Below are positions 8,013 to 16,100 of a stretch of DNA of 64,000 bases, piece after piece. Position numbers and translations under genes: made by a program. Origin of the DNA: an uncultured Chloroflexia bacterium (GTDB lineage: Bacteria; Chloroflexota; Limnocylindria; Limnocylindrales; CSP1-4). Every line of letters begins with the position of its first letter. Within the stretch, counting starts at the first letter, position 1. The notes under the pieces are model-generated. The model was not told the DNA's origin and ran no database searches. It worked only from the letters and a program-made list of their open reading frames with translations. The stretch spans positions 119 to 64,118 of the forward strand of contig CAWDUR010000033.1 in NCBI GenBank assembly GCA_963805585.1, read 5' to 3'.

Positions 8013-9104
8013 TCAGCGCCGCTGCTCGGCGAGCGCCTCTCTTGCTACGGCCAGGTAGCGCTCCACCGTGCGCTCGAGGCTGAGCTCAGCGGCGAGCCGC
8101 TGCACCGCCGGATCAGGGTCCGGCAATGGTCCCGCCAGGAGTTCCCGGATGGCGGCAGCCAGGGGCAGCGGCTCTGGGGGGCTGAAGAGGTGCAGCGCCC
8201 CGGGAACGCGAGCGTCGTACTCGCGGACGCTGGGCAGGTCGCTGACCAGCATGGGCTTGCCGGCGGCGATCCAGGAGGACATCGACCCGGATGCCGAGAG
8301 GTCGGTGAAGGGCAGGATGGCCAGGTGCGTGGCCGCCATCCACGTCTCGAGCTCCTCCTCGGACAGGTAGCCCGTGATACGGAAGCGGTCGCCGAGGCCC
8401 AGCTCCTCCGCCTTGGCCAGGGCCAGGTCGTGCACGAAGCTGCGCCCCGCCACGGGGCCGCCGGCGTAGACCATGACCACGTCATCAGGCAGGTGCGGCA
8501 CCGCTTCCACGGCGTAGCGATGGCCCTTGCGGCCGTAGACGAAGCCCAGCAGCGTCACGATGCGGCGGTCGGCCAGGCCCAGTCGCTCGCGGGCCTCTTC
8601 CGGGCGCAGGGCCAGCTCGCGACGCTCCACGAAGTGAGGGATGACGCGCACGCGGTCGGCCGGGATGATGCCGCGCAGCCGCTCCACCTCGACCTCCGAG
8701 TGGACCACGACCCGGTCGGCCGAGCGGCCCAGCCAGCGCAGGCTCCAGGCCTCCGGTGCCAGGTAGCGCTCGCGCAGGCCGTGACGCTCGAAGATGTCGT
8801 GCAGGGTGACGACCAGCGCCCCGCGGTAGGCGCGCCGGAAGCGCAGCAGCCGGTACAACGCTCCGCCGTGCTTGCCCCAGCCGCGACGGTTCCACTGCAT
8901 GAATAGCACCTGCGCCTCGGCAAGCTCGGCGGCCACCCGGGCCAGTCGACTCGAGCCCTCGTCCACGCGACCTGCCTCAGCCTCGTGGATGACCAGGCCG
9001 CCACCTGCGCGAGCCGTGTCGGCGATGAGTTGCCCGTAGCGGCGCACCCCGCTCTCCGGCCGGCCCAGGTGCAGGAACCCCAGGTCATGCAGCTCGGCGG
9101 GCAT
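8013..9104 (-). CDS. glycosyltransferase family 4 (mannosyltransferase-like subfamily), copy 1
   Basis: GT-B pattern LLGFVYGRKG, FRITGYLSEEEL, ILPF..LSASGSMSSWIAAGKPMLVSDLP. The stop-start arrangement couples it to the upstream sulfotransferase. Confidence 0.88.
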   Translation of the reverse strand: MPAELHDLGFLHLGRPESGVRRYGQLIADTARAGGGLVIHEAEAGRVDEGSSRLARVAAELAEAQVLFMQWNRRGWGKHGGALYRLLRFRRAYRGALVVTLHDIFERHGLRERYLAPEAWSLRWLGRSADRVVVHSEVEVERLRGIIPADRVRVIPHFVERRELALRPEEARERLGLADRRIVTLLGFVYGRKGHRYAVEAVPHLPDDVVMVYAGGPVAGRSFVHDLALAKAEELGLGDRFRITGYLSEEELETWMAATHLAILPFTDLSASGSMSSWIAAGKPMLVSDLPSVREYDARVPGALHLFSPPEPLPLAAAIRELLAGPLPDPDPAVQRLAAELSLERTVERYLAVAREALAEQRR

Positions 9105-9126
9105 CGTCAGGCCGGGCCGGTCGGAG

Positions 9127-10182
9127 TCAGTCGACGTACCCGAGACGCCGCAGCAGGTCGCCCGCCTCGTTCTCGATCTCGGCCAGTTCCGAGGGGTAGA
9201 AGGTGCTCCGCCAGGTGCCCACCGACGAGTCGTCGGCGCGCTGCACGGCCGTCAGGAAGCGGTCGCGCGAGGCGGACGCGTCGATGCCCAGGAAGTCCAG
9301 GATGCGCTCGCCCTCGTCGAGCGGTTCGCGGACGAGCGACTCGTAGCGCAGCTCGTGGTACCGCCCGGCGCCCAGTCGGGGCCCCTCGGCCAGGCCGGTC
9401 TCCGTGTAGCGACGCCAGGCCCAGGCCATGCGGCGTGCATCGCTGGTGCGCAGGAACTCCTCGCGCCGCTCGGGCTCGACCCAGAACTTGGGCCACGGTC
9501 CGTGCAGATAGCCGCCCGGCTCGCGCTCGCCCGACCAGGCGTCCTCCGCGCGCAGCCAGGGCTTGTGCATGTGCGAGGAGGCCGCGTCGCGGCCGTCGCG
9601 GATGATGTGGATGAACTGCGAGTCCGGGAAGGCTCGTGACAGGAAGGGGATGAGGAAGATGTTGGTGGGCGTCTTCTCGCTGAAGCGCAGGTCGCCGTCG
9701 CGCTCCACTCGCACCAGCCAGCCGTAGACGAGACGGAAGAACCAGCGCGAGCGGCGGTAGCCCCAGAGGCGCTCATAGACGTAGCGGCCGGCGGCCTTGG
9801 TGGCCGGAGGTTCGTGGTGGTAGGTGATCTCCGGGATGCGGCCGAGGCAGTCGCCCAGGAAGGTCGTCCCGGAACGGGCGGCGCCGATGATGAAGATGGG
9901 CCGCTCGAGCCTGGGAAGGATCGAGGCTGCCAGCCGCCTGGCCGTCATGGGCCGGTGGCGCTCCAGCTTGAGGTAGTAGCGACGTTCGGCGCGGTACGTC
10001 TTCTGGGCCAGGCGCCACATGTCAGCGATGCCGATGGGCAGCGGCTCCGGGTTGACGTCCGGCGGCAGGCTGGGGTCGGTGCCGCGAGGCGGGAGCGACG
10101 CAGCGTCTATGGCGGACGGGCCTGTCTGCGTGGCACCTGCCGTTTCCTGCGGTGCGGCGGCGATCGTCGAGTCCTCGGTCAC
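9127..10182 (-). CDS. PAPS-dependent sulfotransferase, copy 1 (likely GTG start near 10182)
   Basis: 5'-PSB motif IFIIGAARSGTTFL, EKTP, 3'-PB motif IIRDGRDAASS and RYESLV. GGAGG lies upstream of the GTG. Confidence 0.9.
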   Translation of the reverse strand: MTEDSTIAAAPQETAGATQTGPSAIDAASLPPRGTDPSLPPDVNPEPLPIGIADMWRLAQKTYRAERRYYLKLERHRPMTARRLAASILPRLERPIFIIGAARSGTTFLGDCLGRIPEITYHHEPPATKAAGRYVYERLWGYRRSRWFFRLVYGWLVRVERDGDLRFSEKTPTNIFLIPFLSRAFPDSQFIHIIRDGRDAASSHMHKPWLRAEDAWSGEREPGGYLHGPWPKFWVEPERREEFLRTSDARRMAWAWRRYTETGLAEGPRLGAGRYHELRYESLVREPLDEGERILDFLGIDASASRDRFLTAVQRADDSSVGTWRSTFYPSELAEIENEAGDLLRRLGYVD

Positions 10183-14990: not shown

Positions 14991-15002
14991 GCCGCGGCGA
15001 CC

Positions 15003-16100
15003 ATGACCGACCCGGGACGCGGCATCAGCAGCGGCATCCTCGACGACACGGAGGCCATGCACCGCGCCGACCCGGAAGGCATGCTCGGCCTGGTCGCCGA
15101 GCTCCCCGATCAGGTCGTGGAAGCCTGGCGCATCTCGCGCTCGCTGAACCTGCCCTGGGGGGCGCCGCGGGCCGTGGCCGTCCTGGGAATGGGCGGCTCC
15201 GCCATCGGCGGCGACCTCGTGCGCGGCATCTGGTCCGACCGCTTGACGGTGCCCCTGGAGGTCGTCCGCAGCGACGAGCTGCCCGCCTGGGTAGGTCCGG
15301 ACACGCTCGTCGTCGCCAGCTCCAAGAGCGGCAGCACGGAGGAGACCGTCAGCGCCCTCACGGCCGCGTTGCAGCGCCGCTGCCCGGTCGTGGTGCTGAC
15401 AGCTGGCGGCCCACTGAAGGGGGTGGCGGAGCGAGCTGGTCTGCCGCTCGCGACATTCCCGGCCCGCGGCACCCCCCGCTCATCGCTGGGATACTCGCTG
15501 GGACTGCTGGCGGGCATCCTGGAGCGCGTCGGCGTCCTGGCGCTCGACGAAGCGGAGATGCAGGCTGGTGTGGAGGCCGCGCGAGCGATGGCAGCCCGCT
15601 GCGCGCCACAGGTACCGACCGCTGACAACCCCGCCAAGGCGCTCGCCTGGTCGCTCGTCGATCGCTACGCGGTCGTGGTCGGAAGCGGGTTCCTGGGGCC
15701 AGTGGCACGCCGCTGGAAGGCCCAGCTCAACGAGAACAGCAAGGCGACCGCCGCGTTCGAGGAGTTGCCAGAAGCGACGCACAACGCCGTGGTCGGCTTC
15801 GAGCAGCCGGAGTCACTTCGCGACCATCTCTATGTGGTCCTCCTGAGGGGCGAACTCGAGTCCTCTCGCGACGCAGCCCGGGCGCAGCTCATGGGCGAGA
15901 TCCTCACAACGGCCGGGATCTCACAGCAGGTGGTCCGGGTGCACGGCGCAGGCCGGCTCGGCCAGGCACTCGCGGCCCTCACGATGGGTGATCACGTGAG
16001 CGTCTATCTGGCGTTCACGTACGCCGTGGACCCCAGCCCGGTGGCCGTCATCGACCACATCAAGGAACAGCTGGCGCGCCTCGACGATGCGGTGACGTGA
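15003..16100 (+). CDS. bifunctional phosphoglucose/phosphomannose isomerase (SIS domain)
   Basis: GMGGSAIGGD, SKSGSTEET, PRSSLGY, RWKAQLNENSK and PEATHN. Confidence 0.92.
   Translation: MTDPGRGISSGILDDTEAMHRADPEGMLGLVAELPDQVVEAWRISRSLNLPWGAPRAVAVLGMGGSAIGGDLVRGIWSDRLTVPLEVVRSDELPAWVGPDTLVVASSKSGSTEETVSALTAALQRRCPVVVLTAGGPLKGVAERAGLPLATFPARGTPRSSLGYSLGLLAGILERVGVLALDEAEMQAGVEAARAMAARCAPQVPTADNPAKALAWSLVDRYAVVVGSGFLGPVARRWKAQLNENSKATAAFEELPEATHNAVVGFEQPESLRDHLYVVLLRGELESSRDAARAQLMGEILTTAGISQQVVRVHGAGRLGQALAALTMGDHVSVYLAFTYAVDPSPVAVIDHIKEQLARLDDAVT

Follow-up and report, generated by a model that had tools for sequence, protein, structure and literature searches.

What two sulfotransferases (STs) and two glycosyltransferases (GTs) are doing among the genes of GDP-mannose synthesis is the question raised by a locus in the genome of an uncultured member of the Limnocylindrales (Chloroflexota). 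The window, i.e., the whole 64,000-nucleotide stretch of DNA that was analysed, corresponds to positions 119–64118 of contig C33 of an assembly comprising 2.18 Mb in 33 contigs, with a G+C content of about 70% and a completeness of 60%. Close homologues carry the names Candidatus Limnocylindrales or Chloroflexota, and the lineage is a genus of uncultured Limnocylindrales occurring in soil and freshwater. An actinobacterial origin, with the conserved whiB2/manC/pmmA/manA region of that group, was considered on account of a G+C content of 71% and rejected in view of these homologue names. Genes were called using a listing of open reading frames (ORFs), a frame plot of the G+C content at the third codon position (GC3), Pfam, and NCBIfam.

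In the region 8013–16100, two ST–GT pairs on the minus strand alternate with plus-strand genes for mannose-1-phosphate guanylyltransferase (manC), phosphomannomutase (PMM), and a bifunctional phosphoglucose/phosphomannose isomerase (PGI/PMI). The original prediction, made from the sequence alone, had described these seven genes as duplicated ST–GT modules wrapped around a complete GDP-mannose pathway, and all seven were found with the predicted placement and strands. Hereafter, GT* designates the subfamily of GT4-like GT-B enzymes lacking the EX7E motif to which both glycosyltransferases belong, and L numbers designate related loci, including L002, a relative in which every gene of the locus is intact and which was used as the tblastn query. 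With a probability of about 0.6, the locus carries a horizontally acquired sulfo-glycosylation module, which was split and inserted antisense into the gaps beside a housekeeping manC gene and which makes a sulfated glycan or glycoconjugate.

Glycosyltransferases lacking the EX7E motif

The two glycosyltransferases, GT*1 and GT*2, are about 43% identical and share the motif LHLGRxxSG(V/L)RRYG, while the EX7E site is replaced by SASGSMSSW in GT*1 and SASGALATW in GT*2, in agreement with the original description of them as paralogues with a SASG...W signature. GT*1 orthologues are 72–94% identical. GT4-type Pfam domains were detected above the cut-off, namely Glyco_trans_1_4 with 47 and 49 bits (cut-off 27) and Glyco_transf_4 with 42 bits. 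An AlphaFold2 model of GT*1 (pLDDT 95.5) has the GT-B fold and is closest to GT4 structures, with E-values of 1e-12 to 1e-16. The retaining GT4 enzymes GlgM (6tvp), HepE (4xsu), SPS (6kih), MshA (3c4q), the MMP mannosyltransferase (7qsg), PimB' (3oka), and PimA (2gej) share with GT* the GT-B fold (TM-score about 0.7), the RK-G phosphate-binding motif, and the histidine of the N-domain. However, their identity to GT* is 11–19%, and GT* has neither of the EX7E glutamates. Among the structural neighbours, UDP-Glc, ADP-Glc, UDP-GlcNAc, and GDP-Man all serve as donors.

A subfamily search with GT*1 retrieved 171 representative clusters at E <= 1e-30, and the motif was counted in the 147 of 150 listed representatives whose alignment spans it. 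The first EX7E position is occupied by Ser in 107 and by Ala in 28 of the 147 sequences, the second by Trp in 130, and Glu was found at neither position in any of them. The motif CPF..SASGSLSTWI is near-invariant in this set, and H102-D103, E139, K193-G194, and T244-G245 are also conserved in the subfamily. The presence of R-K-G (K193, G194) together with H102-D103 suggests that the predicted nucleotide-diphosphate site is retained.

The long members of the subfamily are fusions, in which GT* is joined to an ST of subtype B (ST-B+GT*, protein P0136), to GT4, to GT2 and GT4, to GT61, or to a pyruvyl transferase. At two planctomycete loci (L027:7872–10325 and L045:7962–10205), GT* and the next GT4-like gene form one frame of 747–817 aa; the downstream GT4-like partners have no canonical EX7E and carry LTSGA..LAMSFG instead.

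On a phylogenetic tree of 79 GT* sequences, those of Chloroflexota form one clade (support 99) divided into a GT*2 group of 14 rows, in which all loci are represented, and a GT*1 group of 5 rows. Since the tree splits in this way, GT*1 is a later duplicate limited to a subclade. The relatives L055, L059, L067, and L083 carry ST-A, the subtype to which the first sulfotransferase of the window belongs, with no GT* behind it. The predicted duplication of ST–GT modules was thus borne out for the glycosyltransferases, which are lineage-specific duplicates; duplication of the whole module as a unit was rejected, since the sulfotransferases are of different subtypes.

Sulfotransferases

Both sulfotransferases contain the motifs for binding of 3'-phosphoadenosine 5'-phosphosulfate (PAPS), IIGAARSGTT and IIRDGRD in ST1 and VIGSPRSGTT and LLRDGHD in ST2. 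The residues R19, S20, G21, T22, R111, D112, and S119, which belong to the 5'-phosphosulfate loop and the 3'-phosphate motif, are invariant in 27 homologues, and the Sulfotransfer_3 (PF13469) scores of 95 bits for ST1 and 110 bits for ST2 exceed the cut-off of 27. ST1 and ST2 are about 31% identical and represent different old subtypes, A and C. ST1 is 83% identical to its orthologue in L002 and shares 50–64% identity with the ST that comes first at cyanobacterial, planctomycete, Rhodothermales, and myxobacterial loci; ST2 (subtype C) is located directly upstream of GT*, in the slot held by subtype B in other phyla.

The model of ST1 (pLDDT 91) matches the folds of TPST1/2 (the closest), the CurM ST, Stf9, and SULTs, and the ST profile matches TPST1/2 over the full length with an E-value of about 1e-36 and the CurM/OLS ST domains with about 1e-28. 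TPST1/2 and CurM/OLS, the nearest solved relatives, have the 5'-phosphosulfate-binding and 3'-phosphate-binding PAPS motifs in common with the STs of the locus, but they are 18–20% identical to them and modify peptides or polyketides, whereas the context here is glycan synthesis; ST-A also differs from them in having its own insertion, GGY..GP..FWVEP..R.EF. These profile and fold matches establish the PAPS-dependent fold and say little about the acceptor.

The rhizobial enzymes NodH and NoeE and the mycobacterial Stf enzymes are responsible for bacterial PAPS-dependent sulfation of glycolipids or oligosaccharides. NoeE (NF052394) is the sole NCBIfam model matched by the STs, but the scores of 26 and 48.6 bits against a cut-off of 500 show that they are not its members. 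Stf1 and Stf9 are among the fold matches. Unlike the locus described here, the Nod-factor (NodH, NoeE) and Stf systems have no paired EX7E-less GT.

Insertion beside the GDP-mannose genes

ManC was found in 60 of the 61 sampled genomes of the order, including genomes of 1.1 Mb. At all eight sister-genus loci compared, manC and PMM are adjacent on the same strand; metK abuts manC at four of them and is 2–6 kb apart at three more. In these genera, ahcY, metK, manC, and PMM form a row on one strand, free of ST and GT genes. ST1, on the other hand, is missing from all 60 genomes that represent 14 other genera of the order. Within the genus of the window, the synteny survey showed that the pairs are indeed conserved together, with ST1 in 45 of the 49 genomes and in all nine high-quality ones, and a second ST is located 3–4 kb from ST1 in most congeners. 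The ST–GT pairs lie antisense in two gaps, one between metK and manC and the other between manC and PMM, and every Chloroflexota locus found via the GT motif has the layout PGI-PMM / ST-GT* / manC / ST(-GT*) / metK.

Given the order-wide occurrence of ManC and the sister-genus rows without ST–GT pairs, manC and PMM predate the pairs at this locus and are ancestral genes with a housekeeping role throughout the order. The pairs and the GDP-mannose pathway are not co-inherited, and the idea of a dedicated cluster with a complete GDP-mannose pathway as its integral part is rejected on these data.

All three enzyme families of GDP-mannose synthesis (PMI, PMM, and ManC) are encoded, and ManC of L002 has an additional beta-helix domain. 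The proteins score below the NCBIfam equivalog cut-offs: PGI/PMI reaches 279.6 bits with NF006426 (cut-off 295), and the best NCBIfam match of PMM, which is 84% identical to the L002 protein, is likewise under its cut-off. The substrate specificities of ManC, PMM, and PGI/PMI are predictions from sequence.

Some relatives carry additional genes in this region. A GHMP-family sugar kinase is encoded between GT*2 and manC in L072 (4659–5795, minus strand), while L059 (13461–16734, plus strand) contains genes for a Sulfotransfer_2 protein and a class-V aminotransferase and a third Sulfotransfer_3 gene, adjoining metK. A GDP-heptose route of the HddA/HddC type, prompted by the L072 kinase, was set aside, as the SIS protein of the locus is of the PGI/PMI type.

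The ST–GT* module in other phyla

A scan of species-representative genomes, in which loci were picked by the GT motif alone, yielded 80 loci from Cyanobacteria, Planctomycetota, Chloroflexota, Rhodothermales, Acidobacteriota, Gemmatimonadota, Myxococcota, and one Altiarchaeota bin. Of about 70 GT* copies, 46 are preceded on the same strand by an ST that is homologous to ST1 or ST2 and ends at most 250 nt away; in 24 of these 46, the ST stop lies within 3 nt of the GT* start+3, which is consistent with a 4-nt overlap. In P0136, ST-B and GT* constitute a single polypeptide. The functional coupling of ST and GT, as predicted for the locus, is therefore supported. The usual gene order is ST-A, ST-B, GT*, GT4.

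At ten loci outside Chloroflexota, the neighbouring genes include 20 sulfotransferases, 16 GT4, 9 GT2, and 7 Wzx-type flippases, as well as methyltransferases. The locus of Leptolyngbya PCC 7375 encodes at least five STs (three identified by Pfam and two more by a local hidden Markov model) along with GT2, GT4, and GT61 genes. The ST-rich polysaccharide clusters of Leptolyngbya sp. PCC 7375, Nodosilinea nodulosa PCC 7104, and Longimonas halophila KCTC 42399 contain orthologous genes in the same order as here: ST-A is followed by an ST that immediately precedes GT* and in many cases overlaps it by 4 nt, and their SASGSLSTW GT* enzymes are 35–46% identical. In these clusters, the module is surrounded by GT2, GT4, GT61, Wzx, and methyltransferase genes and is not accompanied by manC, whereas in the Limnocylindrales locus it is split around manC, GT* is duplicated, and other glycan genes are absent. 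Near none of the approximately 60 GT* loci outside Chloroflexota were manC, PMM, or PGI found.

Various neighbours were observed for GT* copies not accompanied by an ST. Those of cyanobacteria lie either behind a conserved row of genes for a kdsA-like protein (DAHP_synth_1), a kdsC-like HAD phosphatase, GT4, and GT2 (L035:4630–9164; L023, L029, L031, L053, L058, and L079) or directly behind a polysaccharide pyruvyl transferase gene (L026 and L044). The kdsA/kdsC-like genes and the pyruvyl transferase are other sources of anionic sugar groups. A literature search revealed no paper on Limnocylindrales sulfotransferases, or on EX7E together with a sulfotransferase.

PAPS supply

The genome contains cysA, cysD, and cysN on contig C24, and cysN has no kinase domain. 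Sat-type ATP sulfurylase, considered as a PAPS route, was rejected, since it was found neither in this genome nor in any of the 49 genomes searched; the CysDN type is present instead. A stand-alone cysC gene (184 aa) for adenosine 5'-phosphosulfate (APS) kinase was identified in 44 of the 49 congeners, including all nine high-quality genomes, while outside the genus strong matches are limited to about 7 of 41 genomes of the family. The lack of cysC in the assembly at hand is best explained by its incompleteness, and the fact that cysC accompanies the ST genes speaks for genuine PAPS-dependent sulfation. The search for cysD, cysN, and cysC suggested by the original prediction thus gave the first two in this genome and the third in its congeners. 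None of the three outcomes named in that prediction as refuting it (use of a non-mannose donor, pairs not kept together, no PAPS supply in the genome) was observed. In congeners (L018:1480–2034, plus strand), cysC is located between genes for a PPIC-type PPIase and a MazG-type pyrophosphohydrolase, outside any sulfate-assimilation operon.

Proposed function and alternatives

The core of the module consists of a PAPS-dependent ST directly followed by an EX7E-less GT-B enzyme (here ST-C with GT*2) and is accompanied by the highly conserved second sulfotransferase, ST-A, behind which the duplicate GT*1 is encoded in the subclade of the window. For the donor and acceptor, the sequence of the reactions, and the location of the product, we infer the following scheme. 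CysDN would form APS, to be converted into PAPS by the stand-alone CysC. The soluble GT* enzymes would put one or two sugars on a carrier at the cytoplasmic face, with GDP-mannose from the adjoining ManC, PMM, and PGI/PMI as the obvious candidate donor, and both STs would O-sulfate the resulting unit, so that the cell envelope would acquire a sulfated oligosaccharide or glycoconjugate. The original prediction envisaged two rounds of mannosylation together with sulfation, which would fit only a part of the lineage; several relatives possess two STs and a single GT.

The best-studied bacterial precedent is the synechan xss cluster of Synechocystis sp. PCC 6803, where PAPS-type STs are encoded among GTs and a sulfated exopolysaccharide is made (PMC8205485). 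The Limnocylindrales locus agrees in its general logic with xss and with other clusters for sulfated capsules. However, xss encodes a complete Wzx/Wzy pathway with a priming GT, polysaccharide copolymerase (PCP), and outer membrane polysaccharide export protein (OPX), none of which is encoded at this locus. A tblastn search with cyanobacterial GT* gave no match in 72,556 plasmid records, among which the presence of the xss plasmid pSYSM was not checked; GT* is probably not part of xss.

A number of observations weigh against the proposed sulfo-glycosylation module. No gene for a priming GT, Wzx, Wzy, PCP/OPX, or an exporter was found in the flanks examined (about 1,600–8,000 and 16,100–33,500). 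In line with the lack of flippase and PAPS synthesis genes in the window noted in the original prediction, neither a Wzx-type (Polysacc_synt_3) match nor an APS kinase was found in the whole 60%-complete assembly. Wzx-type matches are present in 29 of the 49 congeners, most of them weak, and the Wzx flippase was rejected as a genus-wide partner owing to this patchy distribution. For about one third of the GT* copies, most of them in a single clade of cyanobacteria, no ST was found up to 8 kb away, so that GT* is not strictly dependent on sulfation. Among proteins of solved structure, those most closely related to the STs act on protein tyrosine rather than on carbohydrates. In the literature, we found no description of GT* paired with particular ST subtypes and no characterised member of GT*, ST-A, ST-B, or ST-C. 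Finally, the link to manC, which is absent from the vicinity of GT* loci outside Chloroflexota, may reflect only the site of DNA insertion.

This last point leads to an alternative that is unlikely but conceivable, namely that the same enzymes became linked to manC accidentally, by chance or at an insertion-prone site, and use another donor to make a sulfated glycan without mannose. The predicted role of GDP-mannose as the donor is suggested by adjacency, and it lost ground with the finding that GT* never lies beside manC outside Chloroflexota. An accidental link would also agree with the ancestral housekeeping nature of manC and PMM, with the variability of the locus (the extra GHMP kinase of L072, and the Sulfotransfer_2 protein, aminotransferase, and third ST of L059), and with the different sugar nucleotides used by the structural neighbours of GT*. 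However, two separate insertions both came to lie immediately next to manC; each has a short divergent intergenic stretch in common with a gene of GDP-mannose synthesis (70 nt between ST1 and manC, about 110 nt between ST2 and PMM), and 45 of 49 species retain this arrangement.

The replacement of the EX7E glutamates allows a further, rather doubtful, interpretation of the enzymes themselves. The SASGSLSTW-type GT-B enzymes could constitute a distinct class of glycosyltransferases handling anionic sugars, in which the paired ST acts first, on the nucleotide sugar or the acceptor, and GT* transfers the sulfated residue or extends from it. The Ser/Thr-rich loop in place of the glutamates would fit a negative charge, and ST-B/C and GT* would form an obligate sulfo-glycosylation unit, sometimes in one polypeptide. 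The ST-less GT* copies located beside or fused to pyruvyl transferases, or near kdsA/kdsC-like genes, are consistent with such a role. The product in the monoderm Limnocylindrales might then be an anionic polymer of the wall that contains no phosphorus.

A small product remaining in the cytoplasm, such as a sulfated mannosyl compatible solute, is improbable as an alternative to an envelope glycan. The compactness of the cluster, the predicted solubility of all four enzymes, the adjacent sugar-nucleotide supply, the absence of a priming transferase, flippase, and exporter from the locus, and the fact that Wzx is not genus-wide would all suit a solute. Nevertheless, orthologous modules elsewhere form part of large clusters for polysaccharides that also encode Wzx, GT2, and GT4, and the fusions of GT* to GT4, GT2, GT61, and pyruvyl-transferase domains resemble enzymes that build polymers. 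The small-molecule product considered in the original prediction is thus less likely than a glycan.

Sulfation of a protein or peptide, such as tyrosine O-sulfation, with GT* glycosylating the same protein, is very improbable. It is favoured by the full-length profile matches to TPST1/2 and by the similarity of the ST1 model to TPST (TM-score 0.65–0.69), but the low sequence identity, the breadth of the Sulfotransfer_3 family, and the nearly as high scores of CurM-type STs argue against it; moreover, the pairs have no conserved gene for a candidate substrate next to them, and their neighbours elsewhere are polysaccharide genes.

Frame breaks and assembly errors

As assembled, three of the genes are interrupted, a point absent from the original prediction. 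The manC gene has two frame breaks, near 11047 and 11290, and aligns with L002 ManC as three collinear tblastn pieces; GT*2 is broken near 12235 and ST2 near 12776, each aligning with the L002 protein as two collinear pieces. The breaks were checked against Logan short-read contigs of 95–100% identical strains from wetland and soil samples. These contigs differ from the assembly by one letter in length at 11288/11292, 12235, and 12776, and, in a further run, at 11048; at 12235 and at 12776 they lack one letter relative to the assembly. Since the short-read contigs differ by one letter at these places and L002 is intact, the four breaks are insertion errors of the assembly, and the genes of the locus are intact in nature. 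In a second close relative, L001, likewise assembled as long contigs, other genes (PMM and PGI) are fragmented. That the cluster is decaying, with real breaks in manC, GT*2, and ST2 and a non-functional locus in this genome, is hardly credible in spite of four breaks within 1.8 kb of assembled sequence, since the one-letter differences recur in several samples, L001 is broken elsewhere and L002 not at all, and manC is otherwise universal in the order; the status of pseudogenes was ruled out for the genes of the locus.

One-letter insertion errors are frequent in this assembly, with four of them between 11047 and 12776, and probably occur elsewhere in the window. The GC3-filtered ORF map has no clean ORF at about 23.8–26.4, 27.6–29.6, 40.5–44.2, and 57.6–61.3 kb, and these ORF-poor stretches may hide more broken genes, so that apparent pseudogenes of this genome are not to be trusted without reads. 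At 13466, just upstream of the presumed PMM start, an extra C is present in about half of the contig depth (run X25), which may be a strain difference or an assembly error affecting the PMM start.

Gene layout and flanking genes

The genes of the locus and the adjoining metK are listed in Table 1. The predicted ATGA overlap of ST2 and GT*2 was confirmed on the minus strand (ATG at 12502–12500, TGA at 12501–12499), while ST1 and GT*1 are separated by 22 nt. ST1 and manC are divergent with a gap of 70 nt, ST2 and PMM are divergent with a gap of about 110 nt, and manC is convergent with GT*2. The start codon of ST1 is probably the GTG at 10182, with an alternative ATG at 10020. A promoter and terminator scan of positions 7900–16300 gave no signal beyond chance. 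In a sediment run labelled 'RNA-Seq', contigs of a 94–95% identical relative span ST1 and GT*1, which is weak evidence of their expression, as the library may contain DNA.

Table 1. Genes of the sulfotransferase–glycosyltransferase locus and the adjoining metK gene
Gene	Position	Strand	Characteristics
metK	6771–7958	+	intact
GT4-like glycosyltransferase 1 (GT*1)	8013–9104	-	363 aa, intact; Pfam Glyco_trans_1_4, 47 bits
Sulfotransferase 1 (ST1, subtype A)	9127–~10182	-	~351 aa, intact; Pfam Sulfotransfer_3, 95 bits
manC, mannose-1-phosphate guanylyltransferase	10253–11385	+	three frames as assembled; NTP_transferase; TIGR01479, 182 bits, N-terminal half
GT4-like glycosyltransferase 2 (GT*2)	11401–12502	-	~366 aa; one frame break; Pfam
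Sulfotransferase 2 (ST2, subtype C)	12499–13405	-	~300 aa; one frame break; Pfam Sulfotransfer_3, 110 bits
PMM, phosphomannomutase-type phosphohexomutase	13518–14990	+	intact; Pfam PGM_PMM domains I–IV
Bifunctional PGI/PMI-type SIS protein	15003–16100	+	365 aa, intact; bact-PGI_C, 145 bits

The flanking genes are housekeeping genes unrelated to the ST–GT pairs, encoding enzymes of the S-adenosylmethionine cycle, a secreted HExxH protease-like protein, an iron-type ABC importer, and enzymes of amino-acid synthesis. A 242-aa hypothetical protein without a Pfam match is encoded antisense between ahcY and metK (5848–6576, minus strand); it is kept in the close relatives L001, L002, L078, and L093 and absent from the eight sister-genus loci examined, and may represent a further lineage-specific insertion into the same gene row. 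The gene at 17469–18983 (minus strand) encodes a 504-aa protein with a signal-peptide-like N-terminus, the zinc-protease motif HELGH, and a weak match to Peptidase_M10, and it keeps its position across the genus and in some sister genera. A single ORF of 612 aa (20281–22119, plus strand) encodes a FecCD-type permease fused to an ABC ATPase, adjoined by the gene of a Peripla_BP_2 binding protein (19237–20280). The 242-aa protein, a 273-aa protein, and the HExxH protease-like protein were considered as partners of the module and rejected, as none of them is found at GT* loci of other phyla.

Biological significance

Sulfated glycans are well known from animals and algae. In bacteria, they were long held to be nearly exclusive to cyanobacteria (PMC8205485), and a few sulfated capsules of marine bacteria have been added lately (PMC11641403, PMC11766843). 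The locus described here predicts a sulfated glycan in an abundant uncultured lineage of soil and freshwater Chloroflexota.

More generally, an uncharacterised module of two or three genes (ST-A, ST-B/C, and an EX7E-less GT-B enzyme) is common to at least six phyla. Its carriers include the cultured strains Nodosilinea nodulosa PCC 7104, Leptolyngbya sp. PCC 7375, Hydrococcus rivularis NIES-593, Nostoc spongiaeforme FACHB-130, and Longimonas halophila KCTC 42399, which makes the function of the module directly testable. Resolving this function would define a new GT4-like subfamily and the way in which it works without the EX7E glutamates, and the module is a possible source of enzymes for making sulfated sugars. 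For the Limnocylindrales, the answer would provide a first handle on the envelope chemistry that sets one genus apart from its relatives.

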